From Dehalococcoidales bacterium (GTDB taxonomy: Bacteria; Chloroflexota; Dehalococcoidia; Dehalococcoidales; UBA3254): a DNA stretch of 40,038 nucleotides. The stretch lies in assembly GCA_034429955.1 (NCBI GenBank), contig DAOUFH010000095.1, positions 1-40,038 of the forward strand, read 5' to 3'. Positions 3,249 through 21,308 of this stretch are shown here, in pieces (the stretch's first letter is position 1; the number at the start of each line of letters is the position of its first letter). Position numbers and translations under genes: made by a program. Below the pieces are notes generated by a model. It saw only the letters and a list, made by a program, of their open reading frames with translations. It was not told the DNA's origin and searched no databases.

Positions 3249-4706
3249 TTATACGGCAGGTAATTTGATTTCGAAGAAAGTACCCCGACCTAGCTGACTG
3301 TTAACTGAGATATCCCCGCCGCTGGACTGTATTATACTGCGTATTATTGCAAGTCCCAGTCCGAAACCGACTGAGGTGCCCGGAGCCTTATAAAAGCGTT
3401 CAAAAATATGCGGTAGATGCTCCGGCGCAATTCCTGCCCCGTTATCCGCCACATTAATAACGACATATTCCGATTGACGGAAGGCACGTAGAGTGACAGT
3501 ACCTCCGGTAGTAGTATGCTTGAAAGCATTATCCAGCAATCCGGAGATCACACGAAGGAAATCAGAACGTTTGCCTTTAATCCTCAAATCAGGCTCAATA
3601 TCATAGTCAAAACGGATATTTTTAGCCTCAAATAGATAAGTGAATGACTCCTGTATTTCGACCAGTAAGACTGAGAGTTGCAGGGTCTCAGTGGTAGGCA
3701 GATGTTTAGTTTCATCCATCGCAGAAAGAAAGAGTAGTTCGTTAACAAGCTTTTCCATATAATTCACACGATCTGAGAGAAATGTCAGTAATTTTAGGTA
3801 GTCTTCGACAGAATGTTCGGCGGGCAGCATCTGACTGAGTGACGTTTTAACTGCTGCCAGCGGCGTTCTAAGCTCATGGGCTGCATCTGACACGAATCTT
3901 TTTTGCGAATTGAAAGATGCTTCCAGTCTATCGGCCATGGTATTAAAAGAACGCGCCAGTCGTCCTATTTCATCATTGGAATGTATTTCAATACGCTCCG
4001 ACAGGTTAGACTGGCTAAGTAGTTCAGTAGAACGGGTAACACGCCTCAAAGGCCTTACCGTCAGCCAGGTGATTAAAATACCAAAAGCTAGGGAGAAAAT
4101 GATGATAAGAGGAAGTCCGTAAGTTACGTCATAAATAACTTGTTTGGTCCAACCTGGAGATGGAATAGTATAACGGTCCAGAGATACTATATAAAGCAGA
4201 CCGGGATAACCTTCAACAGGCAGATAATACAAATCACTGGTACGGGTGCCGGATACATTCCCGAATGAGACCAGAGTATCAGGGAAATAGGATTCAGGCA
4301 AAGCTAACGGACCGATTTTAAAAGAATCGCCTGAACTCGAATATCTTCCTGTAAAAGTCACATTATAATAAACCTGATGATCTACGGTATAAGGTTCGCT
4401 GATAAAATGACTCCAGCCCACTCCTCCCTCAGTATAAATATCTATAAAAAGATTGAAACGCTCCAGACGATCATCAAAATCTGAAGCTCTTAAAGCATAA
4501 ACAGACCTGTCATCTTCTGTATTGATATATAAGTTGTTATCCGGATAGAGGTCGTCGATAAATCCCGGCCCGATTTCCGCCGTTCTCATGCATTGACTGA
4601 CTTCTCTTTTATAATCGTTATATTCAATATAAGCGATCATAGCTGTTACCAGAAACAGTATAGAAACAGAATATATCAGAGTTAATTTAACACTTAGACT
4701 ATTCAT
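3249..4706 (-). CDS. Sensor histidine kinase (2 TM, periplasmic domain, HAMP, HisKA, HATPase_c)
   Basis: 485-aa ORF. TM helices near residues 10-30 and 200-220. HAMP (NDEIGRLARSFNTMADRL). H-box SDAAHELRTPL. G-boxes DNGAGI and GFGLGLAI. Confidence 0.9.
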   Translation of the reverse strand: MNSLSVKLTLIYSVSILFLVTAMIAYIEYNDYKREVSQCMRTAEIGPGFIDDLYPDNNLYINTEDDRSVYALRASDFDDRLERFNLFIDIYTEGGVGWSHFISEPYTVDHQVYYNVTFTGRYSSSGDSFKIGPLALPESYFPDTLVSFGNVSGTRTSDLYYLPVEGYPGLLYIVSLDRYTIPSPGWTKQVIYDVTYGLPLIIIFSLAFGILITWLTVRPLRRVTRSTELLSQSNLSERIEIHSNDEIGRLARSFNTMADRLEASFNSQKRFVSDAAHELRTPLAAVKTSLSQMLPAEHSVEDYLKLLTFLSDRVNYMEKLVNELLFLSAMDETKHLPTTETLQLSVLLVEIQESFTYLFEAKNIRFDYDIEPDLRIKGKRSDFLRVISGLLDNAFKHTTTGGTVTLRAFRQSEYVVINVADNGAGIAPEHLPHIFERFYKAPGTSVGFGLGLAIIRSIIQSSGGDISVNSQLGRGTFFEIKLPAV

Positions 4707-5370
4707 CTTTGATAATATATCCCAGTCCTTTAACAGTCTTGATATAAGCTTCTTTATTCTGTGGACACAGTTTACGACGAATGCGGCTTATCAGAACTTC
4801 TATAACATTGGAGAATGCTGCATGTTCACAATCCCAGATATGCTCTTCCAGCATCTCACGGGTAACAATGCCGTTACGGTTGAGCATTAAGAACTCCAGT
4901 ACCGCGTATTCCTTAGAGGTTAAATCAACCGGACAGTCCTGAACCGTGAGCTTTTTACGGGCTGAATCCAAAACTAATCCACCCGTTTCAATAAGCGAAG
5001 AACCAGATCCACCGGTCCTCCTGAGCAAAGCCCTTAGACGGGCATAAAGCTCTGGATAGCTAAAAGGTTTAACCAGATAGTCGTCCGCCCCGCTATCCAA
5101 ACCCCGAACCTTATCATCTTCACGGTAACGAGCAGTCAACATCAGTACAGGAGTGGTTATCTTTTTGTGACGAATTTCTTGGCAGAGCGAGAAGCCGTCC
5201 AGGTCAGGCAGCATGATATCCAGAATAATTACGTCGAAAGGAAAGGCTTGCAGAATTTCAAGAGCCGTCCGGCCTTCCGCAGCCCAATCCACGGCATAAC
5301 CGCTTTCTTCCAATCCGGACTTAACGACTCTCGCCAGATACTCATCATCTTCCACCAGCAATATTCTCAT
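4699..5370 (-). CDS. OmpR/PhoB-family response regulator
   Basis: 223-aa ORF. MRILLVEDDE, acceptor motif VIILDIMLPDLDG, LMLTA, KPF, and a C-terminal winged-helix (LTSKEYAVLEFL...VKGLGY). Overlaps the kinase gene by 8 nt. Confidence 0.92.
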   Translation of the reverse strand: MRILLVEDDEYLARVVKSGLEESGYAVDWAAEGRTALEILQAFPFDVIILDIMLPDLDGFSLCQEIRHKKITTPVLMLTARYREDDKVRGLDSGADDYLVKPFSYPELYARLRALLRRTGGSGSSLIETGGLVLDSARKKLTVQDCPVDLTSKEYAVLEFLMLNRNGIVTREMLEEHIWDCEHAAFSNVIEVLISRIRRKLCPQNKEAYIKTVKGLGYIIKDE

Positions 5371-5555: not shown

Positions 5556-7715
5556 TCACTCAACCGGTGGACTCAACGATGGGTTCTTTTGCATTGAAAG
5601 CAAAATCCGCCGCCGGGCTTTATCGATTTCCAGAACGGTGACTTCAACCTTCTGCTGGACCTTAACAATGTCATTGGGATTTTTTACAAAGCGGTCGGCC
5701 ATTTTGCTGATATGCACCAGGCCGTCCTGATGAACTCCGATGTCCACAAAAGCGCCGAAGTTGGTGACATTGGTAACGATGCCCGGCAGCTTCATACCGG
5801 GTTTAAGCTGGTCGATATTATTGATACCAGCCGCGAAGCTGAATATTTCAAATTGAGCGCGGGGGTCGCGTCCCGGTTTGCCCAGTTCCTGTAAAATATC
5901 GCTTAATGTAGGCAGTCCCACCTTATCACTCAGGTATTTTTCCAGTACAATCTTTTGACGCAGTTCTTCATTCTGCATCAGGTCCTGCACTGTACAGGCC
6001 AGGTCGGCCGCCATCTTTTTAACCAGGTCATAATTCTCAGGATGAATGGCACTGGCATCCAGGGGATTTTTAGCGTTATAGATGCGCAGGAAACCGGCTG
6101 CCTGTTCAAAGGCCTTGGGGCCCAGGCGAGGCACCTTGCGCAATTCCTGGCGGGTTTTAAAAGGGCCGTTCTGGTCGCGGTATTCCAGAATATTCTTGCC
6201 CAGTGCGGGACCCAGTCCGGAAACATAGGCCAGTATCTGGCGGCTGGCGGTATTGACCTCCACGCCCACCCGGTTGACGCAATTCATTACCGTATCATCC
6301 AGACTCTGTTTAAGTTTGGATTGGTCGACATCATGCTGGTACTGTCCCACACCGATAGATTTAGGATCAATCTTAACCAGTTCAGCCAGAGGGTCCATCA
6401 GACGGCGTCCGATAGAAACCGCCCCGCGCACAGTGATATCATGATCGGGAAATTCCTCACGGGCCGCATCCGAAGCCGAATATATTGAGGCCCCGCTCTC
6501 GTTGACCTGTACTATAGCTATCGATTCCGGCAGGCCCAGGGCGCGGACGAAAGCCTCCGTTTCACGGCCGGCGGTGCCGTTGCCGATGGCAATAGCTTCG
6601 ATTTTGTACTTCTGTACCAGTTCAAGCAGGCTCTTTTTAGCTTCTGCCTCGAGTTTGGCCGACTGGGTAGGGAATATGGTGGTATTATGCAGCAGTTTGC
6701 CCTGGGGGTCGAGACAGACCACTTTACAGCCGGTACGGAAGCCGGGGTCGATTGCCAGCACCGTTTTTTGTCCCAGCGGCGGCGACATTAAAAGTTCCTG
6801 CAGATTGCGGGTAAAGACCCGGATGGCCTCAGCATCGGCACGTTCCTTAATCTCCTGACGGATATCAGTTTCCAGCGAAGGAGCCAGCAGCCTTTTATAA
6901 CTGTCTTCCAGAGCCAGTACCACCTGATCGGAGCAGGGATTTTGGGCTTTAACCATATGACGGAAAATGATTGAAAGGGCCTTGTCTTCCGGTGGCCGGA
7001 TTTCCAGTTTAAGGAACTCCTCAGTTTCACCCCGGAACAAGGCCAGCACCCGGTGGGCGGGCATTCTTAAAATCGCTTCGGATATCTCAAAATAATCGCG
7101 GTATTTGGCGCCTTCCTCTTCCTTACCCTTAACCACCCGTGACTGCAGCACTCCTTCGCGGGCAAAGAGCAACCGCAGGGACTGGCGCAAAGCGGCGTCT
7201 TCATTGATGATTTCGGCGATAATATCGCGGGCTCCCGCCAGAGCGTCTTCTACGGACTCAACCCCTTTTTCGGTGTTGATATAGGCGGCGGCAGCCTGAA
7301 GCGGATCTGTTTTATTATCCTGTAACAGAATCAAATCGGCCAGCGGAGCCAGGCCCTTTTCACGCGCGATAGTGGCGCGGGTGCGCCGTTTGGGCCGGTA
7401 AGGCAGATAAATATCTTCCAGTTCCGGCAGCGTTTGAGCTTCGTCGATAGCCTTCTGCAGCTCGGGTGTCAGCAAATCACGTTCTTCCAGTGATTTAATG
7501 ATAGCCTCACGGCGCTTGTCCATTTCAGCCAACTGAGCCAGGCGGTCACGCACATTGGCGATAACCACTTCATCCAGCGAGCCGGTCTGTTCCTTGCGGT
7601 AGCGGGCGATGAAAGGAACAGTAGAACCCTCTTGAAAAAGCTTATCTATAGCGGTGATCTGCCAGAGTTGCAGTCCCAGTTCCCGGGCTACGCTGGAGGT
7701 ATGTAAATCAGTCAT
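5556..7715 (-). CDS. tex: Tex-like transcription accessory protein (S1 RNA-binding domain at C-terminus)
   Basis: Tex N-terminal motif VPFIARYRKE, YqgF/RuvC-like and HhH regions, and C-terminal S1 domain GIVTNVTNFGAFVDIG. Start placed at the ATG at 7715 (MTDLHTSSVAREL). The 38 codons upstream in the ORF track look like read-through of the 5' region. Confidence 0.9.
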   Translation of the reverse strand: MTDLHTSSVARELGLQLWQITAIDKLFQEGSTVPFIARYRKEQTGSLDEVVIANVRDRLAQLAEMDKRREAIIKSLEERDLLTPELQKAIDEAQTLPELEDIYLPYRPKRRTRATIAREKGLAPLADLILLQDNKTDPLQAAAAYINTEKGVESVEDALAGARDIIAEIINEDAALRQSLRLLFAREGVLQSRVVKGKEEEGAKYRDYFEISEAILRMPAHRVLALFRGETEEFLKLEIRPPEDKALSIIFRHMVKAQNPCSDQVVLALEDSYKRLLAPSLETDIRQEIKERADAEAIRVFTRNLQELLMSPPLGQKTVLAIDPGFRTGCKVVCLDPQGKLLHNTTIFPTQSAKLEAEAKKSLLELVQKYKIEAIAIGNGTAGRETEAFVRALGLPESIAIVQVNESGASIYSASDAAREEFPDHDITVRGAVSIGRRLMDPLAELVKIDPKSIGVGQYQHDVDQSKLKQSLDDTVMNCVNRVGVEVNTASRQILAYVSGLGPALGKNILEYRDQNGPFKTRQELRKVPRLGPKAFEQAAGFLRIYNAKNPLDASAIHPENYDLVKKMAADLACTVQDLMQNEELRQKIVLEKYLSDKVGLPTLSDILQELGKPGRDPRAQFEIFSFAAGINNIDQLKPGMKLPGIVTNVTNFGAFVDIGVHQDGLVHISKMADRFVKNPNDIVKVQQKVEVTVLEIDKARRRILLSMQKNPSLSPPVE

Positions 7716-8004
7716 TATAAAATCTTCTCTCAGGTTGATATTTGCTTGGAGGCATAGAAGCCTGCCAACATTATACAACTTTGGGAGATTGAAAAAACGA
7801 GTAACAAAATGAACAGCCAAAGAAAACACTCACATGATATTTAAACCAGATCCGTTTGAAATATCTTTTAACTATTTAATTAACACTTTTCCTCCAGCTT
7901 TAAAACAAAATAACCAACAGTCTCCAACCAATAAACAAATTATTAAGCAAAAAGTTAAATCTGTGGATTAACTATTCGGATGTTTTTAATCATAAGTTAA
8001 CCGT

Positions 8005-8034
8005 TTGACTACCTATAGTTACAAAGAATACTAT
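8005..8034 (+). promoter_or_regulatory. Candidate sigma70-like promoter of the island operon (TTGACT - 18 nt - TACTAT)
   Basis: TTGACT at 8005-8010 and TACTAT at 8029-8034, about 30 nt upstream of the first possible start (TTG 8064). Pattern match only. Confidence 0.3.
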
Positions 8035-8063
8035 ATTTATAAATCAATCAGGACAACAAGAAT

Positions 8064-9401
8064 TTGGAAACACTAATTCAAAATCAGAATAGGGTTGCCG
8101 CGTTCTCCGTTTTTAACGAAGAAGTTGGTATGGTTTTAACTAAAGGACAATTGTCTGAATTTAGTTTAAAAAATAACGCGTATATACTTTCTTTACTAAA
8201 TGGAAAAGCATCCGAAGTTCTCCAAAAAACAGTATCTCTAAAGATAAGAAGAGAATCTGGTATATTTTTTACAAGCCACGAATTATCAAATAAATTGGCA
8301 TGGAAAATATCAAACTTATTATCCAAAGGAATAAAAGTGGTAGATCCAGCCTGTGGAGCCGGAGACCTGCTTTTAGCTTGTGCACAATATTTACCATTGG
8401 GTAAAAATTTGGGTGACACTATAAATAAATGGTCAGAATTAGTATCCGGGTTCGATTTGTATGATGAGTTTATTTTAGCCACCAAGTTAAGACTTATTTT
8501 ATTGGCAGCAGCCAGAAGTAAAGATAGTCAAAATATTGAAAACTATCTTTTAGAATCAAAGGTCTTTACTGGTTTGGTTAAAAAAGACTTTATATCTGAT
8601 AAAAACGATTTTCGTGAAATGGTATGTTTCGTCGTAAATCCACCATTCGGCGATATTGATGCTCCTAATGGATGTAAATGGGCAACAGGAAAAATTCAGA
8701 CCGCCGCCAGGTTCATGGAAAAACTGTTCATCGAATCTAATCCAGGTCAACAAATTTTGGCAATATTACCAGATGTTTTGCGTAGTGGTACAAGGTATTC
8801 AAAATGGAGAAAAGTTATTGGACAATTTTGTTCCAATTTAGAAATTGAGTCTGCTGGGCGCTTTGATGCGGGGACAGATGTAGATGTGTTTATACTTCAA
8901 GCCACTATGCGCTTTAAGAATGAGATTAACGTTACTTGGCCAGATAATAGTCCAATAATTAATTATAAATATTCAAGCACTGTTTCAGACTATTTTAATG
9001 TTTGTGTTGGGACAATTGTTCCCTATAGGGACCCTGATGAAGGTACAGAATTTCCGTACTTACATGCAAAAAATGCTGAAAAAGGGCAGATTATTAATAG
9101 TTTATCGGAAACAATTTTAACAAAACGAAAGTGTTTTCATCCACCATTTGTTGTAGTGCATCGTACTTCAAGCCCAAATGATACTCCACGATGTGTTACA
9201 AGCATTGTGAACATAAAAAATAATGTCGCTGTCGAAAATCACCTAATTATACTCAAACCAAAGAATAATCAATTGGAGTTATGCCATAGACTAGTGAAAA
9301 TATTAAATTCTTCAATTACAGATACTTTCTTAAACCAGCGTATCCGGTGTAGACATCTAACCGTAGCTTCCGTAAAAGAAATTCCGTGGGTTGAGGAATA
9401 A
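8064..9401 (+). CDS. Gamma-class N6-adenine DNA methyltransferase, M.TaqI/Eco57I-like, with C-terminal target-recognition domain
   Basis: Motif I VVDPACGAGDLLLA is followed by motif IV VVNPPFGD (order I then IV indicates gamma class). About 230 aa of C-terminal non-catalytic region. The start is uncertain: TTG at 8064 or ATG at 8130. Confidence 0.8.
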   Translation: METLIQNQNRVAAFSVFNEEVGMVLTKGQLSEFSLKNNAYILSLLNGKASEVLQKTVSLKIRRESGIFFTSHELSNKLAWKISNLLSKGIKVVDPACGAGDLLLACAQYLPLGKNLGDTINKWSELVSGFDLYDEFILATKLRLILLAAARSKDSQNIENYLLESKVFTGLVKKDFISDKNDFREMVCFVVNPPFGDIDAPNGCKWATGKIQTAARFMEKLFIESNPGQQILAILPDVLRSGTRYSKWRKVIGQFCSNLEIESAGRFDAGTDVDVFILQATMRFKNEINVTWPDNSPIINYKYSSTVSDYFNVCVGTIVPYRDPDEGTEFPYLHAKNAEKGQIINSLSETILTKRKCFHPPFVVVHRTSSPNDTPRCVTSIVNIKNNVAVENHLIILKPKNNQLELCHRLVKILNSSITDTFLNQRIRCRHLTVASVKEIPWVEE

Positions 9402-9404
9402 ATT

Positions 9405-11690
9405 ATGGATGATCGCAAATTAATCGAATCAACTCCTTTTTCAATTGATGCTCGTGTTGCAATCCAGCTAGGAAGAGAAAGTATTTCTAGTTCACTAGTC
9501 GCAGTATCCGAACTAGTTAAAAATTCCTATGATGCAGATGCTGAGGAAATAATAATTGAGTTTTTTGACCGCAATACTACATCACCAACAATAGTCATCG
9601 AAGATGATGGAAATGGAATGACTTTTGATACACTGAAGAACAACTGGTTACGAATAGGTACAGACAATAAATCCAAAACGGATAAATCCGAAGTAAAACA
9701 TCGTGTGCTTACTGGGTTAAAAGGTCTAGGTAGGTTGGGAATTGACAGGCTGTGTAAGAAATTGATACTTCAAACAATCACTGAAACATCAGACCAAGCT
9801 ATTGAACTCGAAATAGATTGGGGTAGTTTTGACCAGAGTGGAGGCATTGACCTTGCTTCTATTAAACATAATATCTACGAGATATCTCCCAAGTTTCATG
9901 ACAAATTCGGGACTTTCCCAACTAATAATAAGTCCAAAGGGACTCGATTAATATTATTAGGACTGAAAGATGAGTGGACTGAAGAGTTTATTACAGAACT
10001 AAAAAACGAACTATCCCGTTTGGTTTCACCGTTTGATAGTATAAAAGACTTTTCAGTCGTGCTAAAAACAGGTATCCCGAAGCTTGATGGCAAAGTAAAT
10101 TCAAAACAATATTTACGCGCTGCAGAAGCAACTCTCCACTCAATAATAGATAAAAACAATATGGTTTCACTTGAAATTGCATCTTCGGCCTATGGAAAAC
10201 GATTCAAACAACCACCCATTTTATGGAAAGATTGGCTTCCAGAAAGAACCTCTGTTCCTAAATGTGGACCTTTACGATTGGAAATGTACTATATTCCAGA
10301 TCGACCAGACAATGTATTACAGTCTCTTGATTTTAAGAAGCAAACTATTAAAGAATTTGTACGTAACAATCAAGGTATAAGAATTTACCGAGACCAATTT
10401 AGAGTGAAGCCCTATGGCGAACCTTCGGGAGAAGGAGACTGGTTAAACCTATCCTATCGTAGGGCAACGCAACCACAAGCAATTACACAGAAAGGATGGA
10501 GGGTCGGTTACCATCAGGTCATCGGTGCTGTATTTATCACTCGTGAATTTAATCCAGGCTTAAATGATCAAACTAATCGAGAAGGTTTAGTAGAAACAAC
10601 TCCTTTTTTTGATTTAAAAGCATTTGGACACAAATCGATTCAAATATTTGAACACTATTTACAGTTATGGGCGTCGGAAGAAAATGATAATAGTGAATCT
10701 GAAAAAGCTAAGGTTAAAACTAACTTAGCAATCTTAAATTCGGTTTCGGTAATTAATGACTTGAAACAAAAAGTCCAAGATCTTGAGATGACATCGGAAT
10801 CGGTTACCGAAAAAGGTAAACTACCCACCAAGGAATTATCCAAACAAATTGAACACGTCGAAAAAACTATAACAGAATCTATTAACTCTTTTAAAAATTA
10901 TGAAATAATTTTAGAAAATGCCCAAAAAGAACTACGACAAGAAAAAGATACCCTTTCAAATCTAGCCTCATTAGGCATATTAACTGTAAGTTTCGGACAC
11001 GAAACTAAAGGAGCCGCAAATTTAGCAGCTCAGAATTCATCAATGCTTAAAAATATTATTCAAAAAGGAAAACTCTTTTTAATGCCCGATGAAGAACAGC
11101 ATTTGTTTGAAAAAATTGACATCATAATAAGAAATATTGATTATGTAAACACCTTTGCTAACTTTGCATTAGCTAACGTTAAATGGGATAAAAGAAAACG
11201 AAGCTTAATTAGTATTGGGAAAATTTGTAAATATGTTATCGACAACTTCAAATTAATTTTTTCCAGTAAAAATATTGATGTTAACATAGATGAGATTGCT
11301 GAAAATATACCGTCTATAAAAGGATTTGCTATAGATTGGGAAAGCATTTTTGTTAATTTTATAACAAATTCAATTTGGGCACTTGAAGATATTCCAGCTG
11401 CAAATCGTAAAATTTGCATCTCAATTAAAAACAATGATGATAACATCAAGATAAATTTTGCTGATAGCGGGAAGGGTCTCGAAAAGGGGACTGAGAATAT
11501 GATATTTGCTCCGACGTTTTCAACAAAAAGGAATGAGAAAGGTGAGCAAATCGGAACAGGTATGGGTTTATCAATTATAAAAACATTTGTTGAAAATCAT
11601 GCTAAAGGAAGTATTATTGCGATTTCGCCTGGAAGGATAGGTGGAGCTGAATTCGTTATCACCATTCCCAATAGTAACGATGTGAGGTAA
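9405..11690 (+). CDS. Dual-GHKL protein: N-terminal MORC/Hsp90-like ATPase (HATPase_c_3-like) fused via coiled coil to a histidine-kinase core (DHp + CA)
   Basis: N-terminal module: ELVKNSYDA (N40), IEDDGNGM (D67xGxG), GLKGLGRLG. Residues about 430-520 are heptad-rich. DHp-like LGILTVSFGHETKG (His532, codon 10998-11000). CA domain: NFITNS, DSGKGL, IFAPTFSTK, GTGMGLS. No TM segment. GAGGAA RBS 6 nt before the ATG. Confidence 0.75.
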   Translation: MDDRKLIESTPFSIDARVAIQLGRESISSSLVAVSELVKNSYDADAEEIIIEFFDRNTTSPTIVIEDDGNGMTFDTLKNNWLRIGTDNKSKTDKSEVKHRVLTGLKGLGRLGIDRLCKKLILQTITETSDQAIELEIDWGSFDQSGGIDLASIKHNIYEISPKFHDKFGTFPTNNKSKGTRLILLGLKDEWTEEFITELKNELSRLVSPFDSIKDFSVVLKTGIPKLDGKVNSKQYLRAAEATLHSIIDKNNMVSLEIASSAYGKRFKQPPILWKDWLPERTSVPKCGPLRLEMYYIPDRPDNVLQSLDFKKQTIKEFVRNNQGIRIYRDQFRVKPYGEPSGEGDWLNLSYRRATQPQAITQKGWRVGYHQVIGAVFITREFNPGLNDQTNREGLVETTPFFDLKAFGHKSIQIFEHYLQLWASEENDNSESEKAKVKTNLAILNSVSVINDLKQKVQDLEMTSESVTEKGKLPTKELSKQIEHVEKTITESINSFKNYEIILENAQKELRQEKDTLSNLASLGILTVSFGHETKGAANLAAQNSSMLKNIIQKGKLFLMPDEEQHLFEKIDIIIRNIDYVNTFANFALANVKWDKRKRSLISIGKICKYVIDNFKLIFSSKNIDVNIDEIAENIPSIKGFAIDWESIFVNFITNSIWALEDIPAANRKICISIKNNDDNIKINFADSGKGLEKGTENMIFAPTFSTKRNEKGEQIGTGMGLSIIKTFVENHAKGSIIAISPGRIGGAEFVITIPNSNDVR

Positions 11691-11694
11691 TAAA

Positions 11695-12327
11695 ATGAGC
11701 CAAAACAAAATAGTATGGTTTATTGATGAAAACCCCGATGCACGGAAAACTTACGTCGAGATTTTACAGGGAATTTATTTACAGGATGTTACAGTATTAC
11801 CAGTTGAACCAAAACCCACCATCATTGAAATGAAGTATATTGTTGATAACCCTGATACTGCATCTATTGTTATTGATGAAAAATTGAAAGACACCGGTGT
11901 TGCTCTCTATTTTGGTATTCAACTTGCTGAATACTTCCGCTCGTTAAATGACAAAATTCCCATATATATATTAACGAGCTATTCAGGGGACTATGATTTA
12001 GAGAAGGGTAAATGGAGTGTGGAGTATATAATTGATAAAAATGAACTCACCAAGGATCTTAATACTATAAAGGCCAGATTGCAACGAAATATGTCAATCT
12101 ACTACGATTGTATAGACGAACGAGAACATAGATTCAACGAGTTGTTAAAAAAATCACTTGAACAAGCTATTACTAAAGAAGAAGCAACTGAGCTAGAAAA
12201 TTTGCAATACATACGCGCAAGAAATATTTTGGCAGATGAGCTCGGATCATCGGTTGTTTTAGAGGAAAAAGTCAAACAACAATTAGAATTGTTGGATAAA
12301 CTCGAAAAGGGAATCAAGCATGACTAA
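11695..12327 (+). CDS. Receiver (REC)-like domain protein with C-terminal coiled-coil, no recognisable output domain
   Basis: VWFIDENPD (D11/E12), ASIVIDEKL (D61, codon 11875-11877), IPIYILTSY (T94), YIIDK (K113) match the CheY-fold signature spacing. Residues about 125-210 are helical and charged. Starts 4 nt after the kinase stop, with a GAGG RBS. Confidence 0.55.
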   Translation: MSQNKIVWFIDENPDARKTYVEILQGIYLQDVTVLPVEPKPTIIEMKYIVDNPDTASIVIDEKLKDTGVALYFGIQLAEYFRSLNDKIPIYILTSYSGDYDLEKGKWSVEYIIDKNELTKDLNTIKARLQRNMSIYYDCIDEREHRFNELLKKSLEQAITKEEATELENLQYIRARNILADELGSSVVLEEKVKQQLELLDKLEKGIKHD

Positions 12328-12985
12328 TAATACAAAAATTTCTTATGATCATCTTTTTTATCCACAGCTTAAACGAAGACAGACATATTTGACGCATAAA
12401 AATAGTTCAAATTTCCAATATAATAGTTATAAGGAACAAATCGAGCAAGATTGCAAGCACAGGTGTGTGTATTGTGACATTACCTATTGTGAAATAGGTT
12501 TTGAAGGAATGGTGTTAGATCATTTCAGACCTCAACGACATTTCCCAGCACTATGTAATAATCCTTATAACTTAGTTCTTTCATGTCCAAAGTGTAATAG
12601 ACTTAAATCTGATTTATGGCCAGCCGGTGTAGATTGTCCTGAAACTTTCAAAGATAATTGCGGGTTTGTAGATCCATTTATAGAATCAATGCAGAGTTAT
12701 TTTTCTATAAAAACTGATGGTATGATTGAGCCGTTGAGACCACCAGCTACTTACCTTGAAAAAGTTCTCCATCTTAATCGATACGCACGGAAACAAGTAC
12801 GTTATTTAAGAATAATTACAAGCAGGATAGAACAATTTCGAAGTCAATTAGAACGAGAGTTCATCGAAAAATCTAATCAACATAATGAACAAAAAATAAC
12901 GGACGCTGATTTCATTTATTACATCAAGGAATACAGGCAAAAACTAGAACTAATGCGAAACCTCAACTCTAAAAACAAACAATGA
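12320..12985 (+). CDS. HNH (His-Me finger) endonuclease, PtuB/TIGR02646-like
   Basis: C49xxC52 ... D67-H68 ... N84 ... C89xxC92-N93 (CVYCD..LDHFRP..NLVLSCPKCNRLK). The ATG overlaps the upstream stop (ATGACTAA, 8-nt overlap). Confidence 0.8.
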   Translation: MTNNTKISYDHLFYPQLKRRQTYLTHKNSSNFQYNSYKEQIEQDCKHRCVYCDITYCEIGFEGMVLDHFRPQRHFPALCNNPYNLVLSCPKCNRLKSDLWPAGVDCPETFKDNCGFVDPFIESMQSYFSIKTDGMIEPLRPPATYLEKVLHLNRYARKQVRYLRIITSRIEQFRSQLEREFIEKSNQHNEQKITDADFIYYIKEYRQKLELMRNLNSKNKQ

Positions 12986-13050
12986 CTATTATTTGTAAAT
13001 ATACACTATGACTAATTTATCTATAGAATTTGAAATCGATTATCTCTCTA

Positions 13051-13314
13051 ATATTTATCAGTTAACGTTAAGCCCCTGCTCCTGATCGTATTCAGGGCAT
13101 AGGAATGCAGGGCGATGGGTGCCAGACCATTAAGGGCATTTTCAAGTTTGATATAGCTGGCTGAATCATAGGTTTTAGCTGTTTCCTCTGCAGCTTCATA
13201 CATATATCTGGTGAGAGCATAAACGGTATCTTCATCTATATCTTCAGTGGTATAAAGTGTGTCCCATTGAGAAACGGTATAGACCCTTTCAGACTGTCCC
13301 TTAAGTTGTAAAAG
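13051..13314 (-). pseudogene. 3' remnant of a solute-binding protein gene (possibly TAXI/TRAP-type), no start codon
   Basis: 88 open codons bounded by stops, at normal (non-island) GC. It translates to ..VYTVSQWDTLYTTEDIDEDTVYALTRYMYEAAEETAKTYDSASYIKLENALNGLAPIALHSYALNTIRSRGL... The LH-x2-A-x7-G spacing resembles the C-terminal PLHPGAxxYYKExG of TAXI receptors. No N-terminal part is present. Confidence 0.4.
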
Positions 13315-13587: not shown

Positions 13588-13943
13588 AAGCCAGGTAAAC
13601 CTGTAAGCCGAGTTCTGTGACCTGCCGCAGCAGGCCGGCGACCATCTATCTAGGCCGGCTGTTGCCAGACGGCTCATGCGGCCAACCCGAGGACGGGCCG
13701 GGCTTTCCCATTGTCCTTCTATTTGGCCTTGCTCCGGATGGGGTTTGCACGGCCGGACAGTTACCTGCCCGCCGGTGAGCTCTTACCTCGCCATTTCACC
13801 CTTACCTCAATAAAGAGGCGGTATGTTTCTGTTGCGCTGTCCGTAGGGTTGCCCCTCCCGGGTGTTACCCGGCATCCTGCCCGCGGAGCTCGGACTTTCC
13901 TCCCCGATCTTACAATCGCGGCGGTCGCCCGGTTTACCTGGCA
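13588..13943 (-). ncRNA. rnpB: RNase P RNA, bacterial type A
   Basis: The minus strand reads GGAGGAAAGTCCGAGCTCC (P4 5' strand, around 13876-13900) and ACAGAACTCGGCTTACAG (P4 3' strand, around 13598-13620). The P1 helix is CCAGGTAAACC / GGTTTACCTGG at the two ends. About 355 nt, GC-rich. The ORFs called over it are spurious. Confidence 0.92.
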
Positions 13944-21028: not shown

Positions 21029-21059
21029 CCATCTCCATTAGTCCTAATCCACGAGGTAT

Positions 21060-21230
21060 TTACCATCCGGCAGGTCTTCTGGCTTCCGGATCAGCCTACC
21101 GGCTGAGGCCTTCCCACTCCTTCAGGAGCAGTGACCGATCAACAGCTTTCGTACCCGGATACAGCGGCGGGACCGCACCCGATTTCGACGGGTTTCCCTA
21201 TTAAGTCCCTGTTACAGGACACCGGACCTC
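21060..21230 (-). promoter_or_regulatory. Cobalamin (B12) riboswitch aptamer
   Basis: The minus strand reads AATAGGGAAACCCGTCGAAATCGGGTGCGGTCCCGCCGCTGTAT ... GTCACTG (B12 box) ... GGGAAGGC ... AGCCAGAAGACCTGCCGG. This matches the conserved core of RF00174 in order and spacing. Confidence 0.85.
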
Positions 21231-21308
21231 TATTAAATTGTTAGAAATATTGTAGCAGGAGCAAATGAGGAGTTTCAAGTTGTAGAACGTTGATATAGAT
21301 AAGCGCGT

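Follow-up and report, generated by a model that had tools for sequence, protein, structure and literature searches.

Introduction

The closest described relative of the locus considered here is Ambrosia, an anti-phage system of Pseudomonas aeruginosa described and validated in a preprint of September 2025 (bioRxiv 10.1101/2025.09.30.679545) and composed of a HipB-like XRE regulator (AbrR), an N6 methylase (AbrA), a histidine kinase/HSP90-like ATPase (AbrB), a receiver protein (AbrC) and an HNH nuclease (AbrD). Here we analyse a window of 40,038 nucleotides (nt), positions 1 to 40,038 of contig DAOUFH010000095.1, to which all coordinates refer, and show that the four-gene cassette at 8064-12985 of its forward strand (genes A, B, C and D) is a new member of validated Ambrosia, not a new system. 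In P. aeruginosa Ambrosia protects against Pbunavirus and Mesyanzhinovviridae phages; its authors, who made both an AbrR deletion and an E45A mutant, report every protein as required, and defence is lost in AbrR E45A, AbrA T72A, AbrB N40A, AbrC D60A and AbrD H60A. Phages propagated on AbrA-expressing cells remain sensitive, the AbrA motif mutant loses defence without being toxic, and no host toxicity accompanies defence. An mNeonGreen reporter in the place of abrA or abrD shows hardly any expression in uninfected cells and strong induction upon infection; the preprint also states that AbrC has a winged helix-turn-helix and favours transcriptional control, and it records the system in Gammaproteobacteria only, with 537 instances (bioRxiv 10.1101/2025.09.30.679545).

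An earlier and purely computational study described soluble “HK-like” proteins with HATPase_c_3, HEF_HK and HATPase_c domains, 91.6% of which are linked to “RR-like” proteins and which are enriched in contexts of type II restriction-modification (R-M) (Bellieny-Rabelo et al. 2021, PMC8011034). In the DefensePredictor paper a HATPase+REC system appears just as a prediction in a figure legend. The preliminary description of the present stretch had recognised no named system in its gene combination; this is superseded, the combination being Ambrosia and the association of such a kinase-receiver pair with R-M loci having been published in 2021. The window is thus not itself a discovery, the protection of Pseudomonas against phage by this combination having meanwhile been demonstrated. 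Its value is comparative: it offers a putative four-gene unit without the XRE regulator, in a distant phylum.

Results and Discussion

Four proteins homologous to Ambrosia components

The assignment was made by BLASTP against the sequences of Table S1 of the preprint and against a P. aeruginosa locus (L084) with the published order XRE-MTase-HK-REC-HNH. Protein A shares 36% identity with the protein at the AbrA position (E 1e-72), B shares 45% with AbrB over its full length (757 columns), C shares 40% with AbrC (E 8e-46) and D shares 43% with AbrD (E 3e-57). The residues replaced in the published mutants find their counterparts in the window: T70 of A aligns with T72 of AbrA, N40 of B is the N40 mutated in AbrB, D61 of C aligns with D60 of AbrC, and H68 of D with H60 of AbrD. 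Because homology extends over four proteins (36-45% identity) and includes the mutated residues, the cassette is regarded as an Ambrosia homologue, and the four equivalents A T70, B N40, C D61 and D H68 would, by homology to the published mutants, each be essential for defence.

Conservation was followed in relatives of 25-100% identity (the 80 best loci for the survey of neighbourhoods, 85 loci for conservation and XRE counts). H532, the predicted phosphoacceptor of B, is present in 85 of 85 relatives and N40 in 84 of 85, both ATP sites being intact; D61 and T/S94 of C are each kept in 55/55; C49, H68, N84, C89 and N93 of D in 40/40; and the NPP[FY] motif of A in 50 of 52. Homology of all four proteins to validated Ambrosia and the invariance of H532 and D61 bear out the initial proposal of a defence cassette with a His-Asp pair set between a methylase and an HNH nuclease. 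We consider it likely that the cassette is a horizontally acquired, AbrR-less Ambrosia member acting by phosphorelay from B to C that switches on D.

The layout (Table 1) is as first described. All four open reading frames (ORFs) are intact, co-directional and located exactly as proposed, with a 3-nt spacer between A and B and a 4-nt spacer between B and C, followed by the overlap of C and D; Shine-Dalgarno-like sequences GAGGA (B), GAGGT (C) and AGGGA (D) precede each gene after the first, 6-9 nt 5′ of the starts.

Table 1. The cassette, its predicted protein domains and the bordering features of the window.
Feature	Position	Strand	Basis or remark
Gene A, AbrA-like gamma-class N6-adenine DNA methyltransferase, 445 amino acids (aa)	8064-9401	+	profiles, motifs, homology to AbrA
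Gene B, AbrB-like soluble MORC/SMCHD1-like ATPase and class-I histidine kinase fusion, 761 aa	9405-11690	+	profiles, models
B aa 1-395, GHKL ATPase head (N40, D67xGxG71) and alpha/beta transducer domains	9405-10589	+	MORC2/MORC3/SMCHD1-like fold
B aa 399-590, long coiled-coil helices into DHp hairpin	10599-11174	+	H-box FGHE, H532 codon 10998-11000
B aa 600-756, kinase catalytic ATP-binding (CA) domain	11202-11672	+	N, G1, F, G2 boxes
Gene C, AbrC-like receiver protein, 210 aa	11695-12327	+	family profiles, model, AbrC homology
Gene D, AbrD-like PtuB/TIGR02646-type zinc-stabilised HNH nuclease, 221 aa	12320-12985	+	overlaps C by 8 nt
AT-rich inserted block with cassette	7830-13060	.	34.0% GC vs 50.4% for remaining window
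Non-coding leader, 234 nt	7830-8063	+	ORFs of 45 aa and 23 aa only, neither HTH-like
Tex gene, bordering the block	5556-7829	-	left flank
Truncated TAXI/NMT1_3 solute-receptor gene	13066-13310	-	Pfam 2.4e-12, profile positions 219-279 of 289
RNase P RNA, bacterial class A	13588-13940	-	299 bits; about 600 nt downstream of cassette

Protein B joins a MORC-like ATPase to a histidine-kinase core

Two separate ATPase modules are recognised in B by Pfam, HATPase_c_3 at aa 30-159 (3.5e-22) and HATPase_c at aa 646-756 (1e-17). The first lies within a region (aa 12-220) matching the BbrUII/HgiDII restriction-enzyme model of NCBIfam (5e-23), the N-terminus being also matched by REase_II of PADLOC (1e-14), while the segment from about aa 505 to 756 is matched by many histidine-kinase equivalogs and contains the N (651-655), G1 (687-691), F (700) and G2 (717-721) boxes. 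The AlphaFold2 model (predicted local distance difference test, pLDDT, 75) arranges the protein as a GHKL head, an alpha/beta transducer, long helices at 399-520, a DHp hairpin at 524-590 and the CA domain. In Foldseek comparison about 470 N-terminal residues of this model match the ATPase modules of SMCHD1, MORC2 and MORC3, and about 250 C-terminal residues match CpxA, HK853 and ZraS, the CA domain reaching a template-modelling (TM) score of 0.89 to that of ThkA (3a0t); a sequence-profile search of PDB agrees with Foldseek (ZraS 1e-17, HK853 1e-15). The DHp/CA fold is present in B, as the REC fold is in C, by profiles and models alike, in accordance with what had been read from the motifs. 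PADLOC also suggested PDC-M43B for B, which was rejected as a weak partial match to the kinase CA domain only (7.6e-6); the literature search for PDC-M43 returned no paper mentioning the name.

Receiver protein C and the nature of its output

For the window sequence Response_reg reaches just E = 0.089 in Pfam, and in the C family it is matched by 13 of 18 members, with a best value of 7e-6; these family matches together with the structure model secure the assignment of C as a receiver. The (beta-alpha)5 REC core occupies aa 5-120 and carries D11/E12, D61 (codon 11875-11877), T94 and K115, and in the AlphaFold2 model (pLDDT 76) D61, T94 and K115 take canonical positions. The motifs named for the four proteins in the preliminary description all stand where it placed them, with one exception, the conserved lysine of the receiver, which is K115 and not K113.

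Behind the core, aa 122-208 are modelled as three long helices, 122-156, 161-183 and 187-208 (35, 23 and 22 residues), with the conserved motif R143-x2-R146-F147-x2-L150-L151 and no strand after residue 114. The family is compact, its 668 representative clusters being nearly all 205-235 aa long and matched end to end, so the helical region is taken as a conserved output module. Neither HTH, Trans_reg_C, GerE nor any other DNA-binding Pfam family was found in the 18 family members even at E <= 1, and the PDB sequence-profile search with the C family gave nothing under E = 0.15. An internal contrast is provided by the OmpR-type regulator encoded at 4699-5370 of the same window, with Response_reg at 3e-31 and Trans_reg_C at 2e-23; the net charge of the C output region is near-neutral, as is that of this regulator, and is no proxy for DNA binding. 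Among the closest homologues of C is a Dehalococcoidales protein. A member of the C family (P0137, 35% identity, 209 aa) also occurs in a eukaryotic transcriptome assembly (EukProt, TRINITY contig), most likely as bacterial contamination.

These properties bear on the way in which phosphorylated C would act. Under transcriptional control, the option favoured in the preprint, phospho-C would be a DNA-binding activator inducing the operon, the methylase would mark DNA and a “type IV-like” HNH nuclease would cut the marked DNA, the proteins being dangerous and kept off until needed. Infection-induced mNeonGreen at abrA and abrD, the loss of defence in D60A, the sensitivity of AbrA-methylated phage and the winged helix-turn-helix reported in AbrC all speak for such a circuit (bioRxiv 10.1101/2025.09.30.679545), and the best Foldseek E-values for C belong to full-length regulators of NarL/FixJ type, RcsB and StyR. 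However, full-length regulators match the C model just at a root-mean-square deviation (rmsd) of 10-17 A, against about 3 A (TM 0.75-0.81) for isolated receiver domains, and the strandless succession of long helices predicted by the model is unlike a compact HTH. The absence of DNA-binding families from the C family points in the same direction, and D, being PtuB-like, has no recognisable modified-base reader domain. AbrR, a regulator that neither this cassette nor most other loci possess, could moreover be the source of the induction seen in P. aeruginosa. A further argument against this circuit is that C would be required to induce its own synthesis, its gene sharing transcript and translational coupling with those of B and D. 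To the circuit in the full form given above we assign rather less than an even chance.

Methylase A and nuclease D

Protein A shows motif I (DPACGAGD, at aa 94) and motif IV (NPPFG, at aa 192) of an N6-adenine methyltransferase, matches N6_Mtase at 8e-5, above the Pfam cutoff, and has a weak TaqI_C-like specificity domain at its C-terminus. Its start is ambiguous, either the TTG at 8064 of the listed ORF, with a weak GGA upstream, or an in-frame ATG at 8130; homology to AbrA begins only at aa 62. Membership in MADS was considered and rejected, since of the four proteins A alone gave matches, and these were weak ones to MAD2 (PADLOC 2e-7; NCBIfam 0.029, far under the cutoff). Protein D combines C49/C52, H68 (codon 12521-12523), N84, C89/C92 and N93 with a helical C-terminal tail and is matched by HNH of Pfam (4e-5), PtuB of PADLOC over 19-207 (2e-16) and TIGR02646 of NCBIfam (5e-8).

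A methylase and a nuclease in one operon invite the reading of the locus as two-component-gated R-M, in which the methylase protects self and a licensed HNH nuclease restricts unmethylated incoming DNA. The type II gamma-class layout of A with its specificity domain would suit this, as would the resemblance of the B N-terminus to the GHKL head of BbrUII/HgiDII-family restriction enzymes and the constant presence of a linked methylase, albeit of exchangeable family (N6_N4_Mtase in locus L039, C5 methylases in the 2021 family, PMC8011034). Yet AbrA-modified phages are unprotected, the AbrA motif mutant loses defence without self-toxicity, and the host suffers no toxicity (bioRxiv 10.1101/2025.09.30.679545). 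The same observations argue against the self-protection by methylation initially ascribed to A, and R-M of this kind appears unlikely.

Distribution and modular variants

The architecture of B is widespread, with more than 3,800 matches at E <= 1e-5 among 8,000 candidates scored; the 120 listed are mostly full-length, of about 740-790 aa. A relative is encoded by no fewer than 592 species-level genomes, and the gene order A-B-C-D recurs in Pseudomonas as well as in the closest metagenomic relatives. Among the 80 best loci, 37, from at least 10 phyla, carry B, C and D side by side and a methylase gene immediately before or behind them; in 35 of these 37 both B-C-D junctions are overlaps or gaps of at most 10 nt. 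Synteny of methylase, kinase, receiver and HNH nuclease across at least 10 phyla is a further point in favour of the defence cassette initially proposed. The methylase precedes B-C-D in Pseudomonas, Roseateles, Kuenenia, Spirochaetia, Gemmatimonadaceae, Gastranaerophilales, Lachnospiraceae and Mycoplasma sp. CAG:956, and follows it in Bacteroidota, Paceibacterota and Alphaproteobacteria. According to an iterative hidden Markov model (HMM) search, only a handful of the 85 loci have an XRE gene directly upstream of the cassette. Relatives of B reside on 27 plasmids, 12 of them conjugative; in phage genomes distant relatives were met in only two tiny unannotated “Bacteriophage sp.” contigs.

Several groups of loci depart from the four-gene form. 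In Streptococcus mitis (L078), in L037, L067 and in about 25 other loci B is followed by a protein of 360-415 aa with an N-terminal receiver; these loci first looked “B-only”, and in S. mitis Response_reg is matched at the N-terminus of the protein at 1.7e-6. The C-terminal domain of such proteins, of about 230 aa, has a conserved “TPACDL”-like motif and no Pfam or PADLOC match, and the whole may be a receiver-fused effector. In Anabaena, Scytonema and Nostoc (L052-L054) and in Albitalea (L065), B and a C-like receiver of 225-233 aa precede a 338-aa protein of metallo-beta-lactamase (MBL) fold that replaces the HNH nuclease; it matches Lactamase_B (2e-9) and, in PADLOC, RTasMBL, PDC-M48B, LmuA and Avs1a, resembling DRT-associated MBL modules, and in the three cyanobacterial loci the methylase HMM found no match. 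A further variant has a “long C”, a receiver protein of 340-390 aa with a Cys/Trp-rich C-terminal extension (L045, L060, L064, L068, L071 and L081 of Bacteroidota, also L041, L049 and L058), after which comes a conserved protein of about 237 aa with the His-rich motif WH[LI]D ... HP.YHFH.GG and no Pfam or PADLOC match; these loci usually contain a methylase, directly downstream and of about 610-645 aa in Bacteroidota, upstream in L049 and L058. An archaeal locus from a metagenome-assembled genome (MAG) of Nitrosopumilus sp. (L023, 5995-9229) encodes a B relative of 29% identity, a receiver (Response_reg 3.5e-10, above the Pfam cutoff) and a 199-aa protein, and the same trio of B, a receiver of about 195 aa and a protein of about 200 aa occurs in Tenacibaculum (L046), Bacteroides (L070) and a Flavobacteriaceae MAG (L079). 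Finally, in a Chitinophagaceae MAG (L039) a beta-class N6_N4_Mtase (9e-53, at 9600-10487) follows B-C-D in place of the AbrA-type enzyme, which makes the methylase module exchangeable as well.

Because effectors and methylases are swapped across loci, the kinase-receiver pair emerges as the constant part. The range of the family is much wider than the Gammaproteobacteria of the preprint, and its modularity far exceeds what has been described. A constant pair with exchangeable partners, whose receiver has no detectable DNA-binding domain, bears on the question of whether Ambrosia is operated through a switch of genes or of the nuclease. We tentatively propose a modular superfamily, extending over at least 10 phyla and to a distant archaeal relative, in which a receiver adaptor that does not bind DNA would license interchangeable effectors post-translationally and independently of XRE, upon His-Asp phosphotransfer from the infection-sensing MORC-like ATPase and histidine-kinase fusion. 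The effectors would comprise PtuB-type HNH and MBL-fold nucleases, fused C-terminal domains and uncharacterised partners of about 200-240 aa. If true, this would make it a post-translational two-component immune switch instead of the transcriptional circuit currently proposed.

Genomic context and origin of the cassette

The sharp difference in composition between the block and its flanks, seen at first reading, is confirmed by the GC values (Table 1). This drop in GC, the truncated gene at the border and the presence of relatives on 27 plasmids indicate that the cassette was acquired horizontally, in a Dehalococcoidales-like chromosome: the best named relatives of the adjoining Tex are from Dehalococcoidales MAGs (72-76% identity). 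In the closest genome (Tex 81% identical), considered for an “empty site”, synteny is not conserved. The solute-receptor remnant at the right border is unannotated, comprises only the last 60 or so residues and has an in-frame stop just upstream; its abutting the AT-rich insert is consistent with insertion or deletion at the site. The flanks of the cassette contain no tRNA genes, bounding direct or inverted repeats, integrase, transposase or further defence genes.

The leader was searched for an XRE/AbrR-like ORF and none was found; likewise, the P. aeruginosa XRE, used as the seed of an iterative HMM search, had no match within the initial 20 kb of the window. At 8005-8034 the leader contains a weak sigma-70-like match, and promoter and terminator scans gave counts close to the shuffled expectation. 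Elsewhere in the window, a canonical membrane histidine kinase (HAMP, HisKA and HATPase_c) is encoded together with the OmpR-type regulator at 3249-5370 on the reverse strand, within a second, milder GC dip (0.40-0.43), and a cobalamin riboswitch (109 bits) is located at 21052-21241, also on the reverse strand.

Surroundings free of other defence genes, integrase and transposase would also suit a non-immune reading, by which B and C are an ordinary cytoplasmic two-component pair beside an orphan methylase and nuclease, or the whole is a decaying remnant. Generic database annotations (“sensor histidine kinase”, “hypothetical protein”) lend it some further support, and so does a frameshifted B in Klebsiella: on plasmid pBM374-1 of Klebsiella variicola (L088; NZ_CP063918.1, 3700-8569) A-B-C-D are generically annotated throughout and B (44% identity) is split into three coding sequences, this copy being probably frameshifted or decaying. 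In the window, however, none of the four ORFs is disrupted and no catalytic residue is missing; the four-gene linkage, with overlapping junctions, is found again in at least 10 phyla; defence by the Pseudomonas homologue has been demonstrated by experiment (bioRxiv 10.1101/2025.09.30.679545), and D belongs to a family of PtuB/retron-type HNH nucleases. A non-immune role is thus highly improbable.

Proposed mode of action

The sequence of events that we envisage starts from synthesis of A-D from one translationally coupled operon. Soluble B would serve as sensor-transducer, its MORC-like GHKL module answering an infection cue, probably a state of DNA; ATP-driven dimerisation of the heads would be relayed along the coiled coil to the kinase core and lead to autophosphorylation of H532, from which the phosphoryl group would pass to D61 of C. 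Phospho-C, via its three-helix output region, would then turn on nuclease D with ensuing damage of phage DNA, while methylase A would be needed for defence in another capacity than as a simple “self” mark. Of these steps, the sensing of a cue by B, the phosphotransfer and the mode of action of phospho-C are inferred.

As to the last, we give direct protein-level licensing of D about an even chance and transcriptional activation a somewhat smaller one, any other way being decidedly unlikely. The modest lean towards direct licensing rests on the lack of a detectable DNA-binding domain, the effector swaps and receiver-effector fusions, the tight C-D coupling, the frequent absence of AbrR and the PtuB type of the nuclease. 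In Septu and retron I-A, the PtuB-type nuclease is controlled at the protein level by a partner ATPase. The preliminary suggestion that the HNH nuclease is licensed via the REC protein is in this respect plausible and fits the structural and neighbourhood data, while the preprint favours control at the level of transcription.

Several points weigh against the phosphorelay-switched, AbrR-less interpretation preferred here. Induction of the abrA and abrD reporters by infection and the winged helix stated for AbrC support a transcriptional output instead of direct licensing (bioRxiv 10.1101/2025.09.30.679545). The published system needs AbrR, which the window cassette does not have, and the defence experiments are confined to the P. 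aeruginosa system. The published set of mutants does not include the H-box histidine, and transfer from His to Asp is predicted here. The output region of C is modelled with moderate confidence (pLDDT 48-83) from 18 sequences only, and AlphaFold confidence for B is low around residues 512-533.

Comparison with known systems

With canonical two-component systems the cassette shares the H-box histidine and the N, G1, F and G2 boxes of B and the D-D-T-K residues of the C receiver. Detocs is a phage-defence system operating by His-Asp phosphorelay, with the hybrid kinase DtcA, the buffer receiver DtcB and the receiver-PNP effector DtcC. The likeness to it is one of concept, a His-Asp phosphorelay (here predicted) combined with a receiver-linked effector; unlike Detocs, the window cassette has no Hpt, buffer receiver or nucleosidase and has a MORC-like sensor and a methylase instead, without sequence relationship, none of the four proteins matching the PADLOC Detocs models and Pfam giving no Hpt or PNP domain. 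Septu and retron type I-A are approached through D, a member of the PtuB/TIGR02646 HNH family; here, though, the partner ATPase is of GHKL type and signals through a receiver protein, and neither Pfam nor PADLOC detects a PtuA-type ABC/AAA ATPase in the cassette. The analogies with Detocs and Septu drawn at the outset thus stand as a resemblance and for the PtuB type of D, and do not extend to any Detocs or PtuA component.

The N-terminal half of B is a GHKL-plus-transducer module like that of prokaryotic MORC/paraMORC ATPases and of BbrUII/HgiDII GHKL enzymes, and ParaMORC1 has been noted beside HNH genes (Iyer, Abhiman and Aravind 2008, PMC2292703). Unlike B, the paraMORC and BbrUII/HgiDII proteins have neither a histidine-kinase core nor a receiver partner and usually occur with SF2 helicases.

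Closer in architecture are the pairs of HEF_HK (PF19191) and Response_reg_2 (PF19192), with which B shares a soluble arrangement of HATPase_c_3, DHp His-Glu and HATPase_c, and the cassette shares a kinase gene directly before a receiver-like gene among methylase and nuclease genes (PMC8011034). That family differs from the cassette in its linkage, mostly to C5 methylases and Vsr, and in its longer receiver protein (PMC8011034). Neither PF19191 nor PF19192 matched the window proteins at E <= 0.1; PF19192 was found in 0/18 C-family members at E <= 1, and PF19191 is absent among the 25 listed of 72 families matched by 17 B-family members.

From Ambrosia as published, the cassette differs by the lack of the XRE regulator AbrR, by a Chloroflexota-like host as opposed to Gammaproteobacteria, and by a C model in which no winged helix is predicted. 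What it has in common with Ambrosia is the same four core genes in the same order, at 36-45% identity, with all published essential residues of these genes kept in the window.

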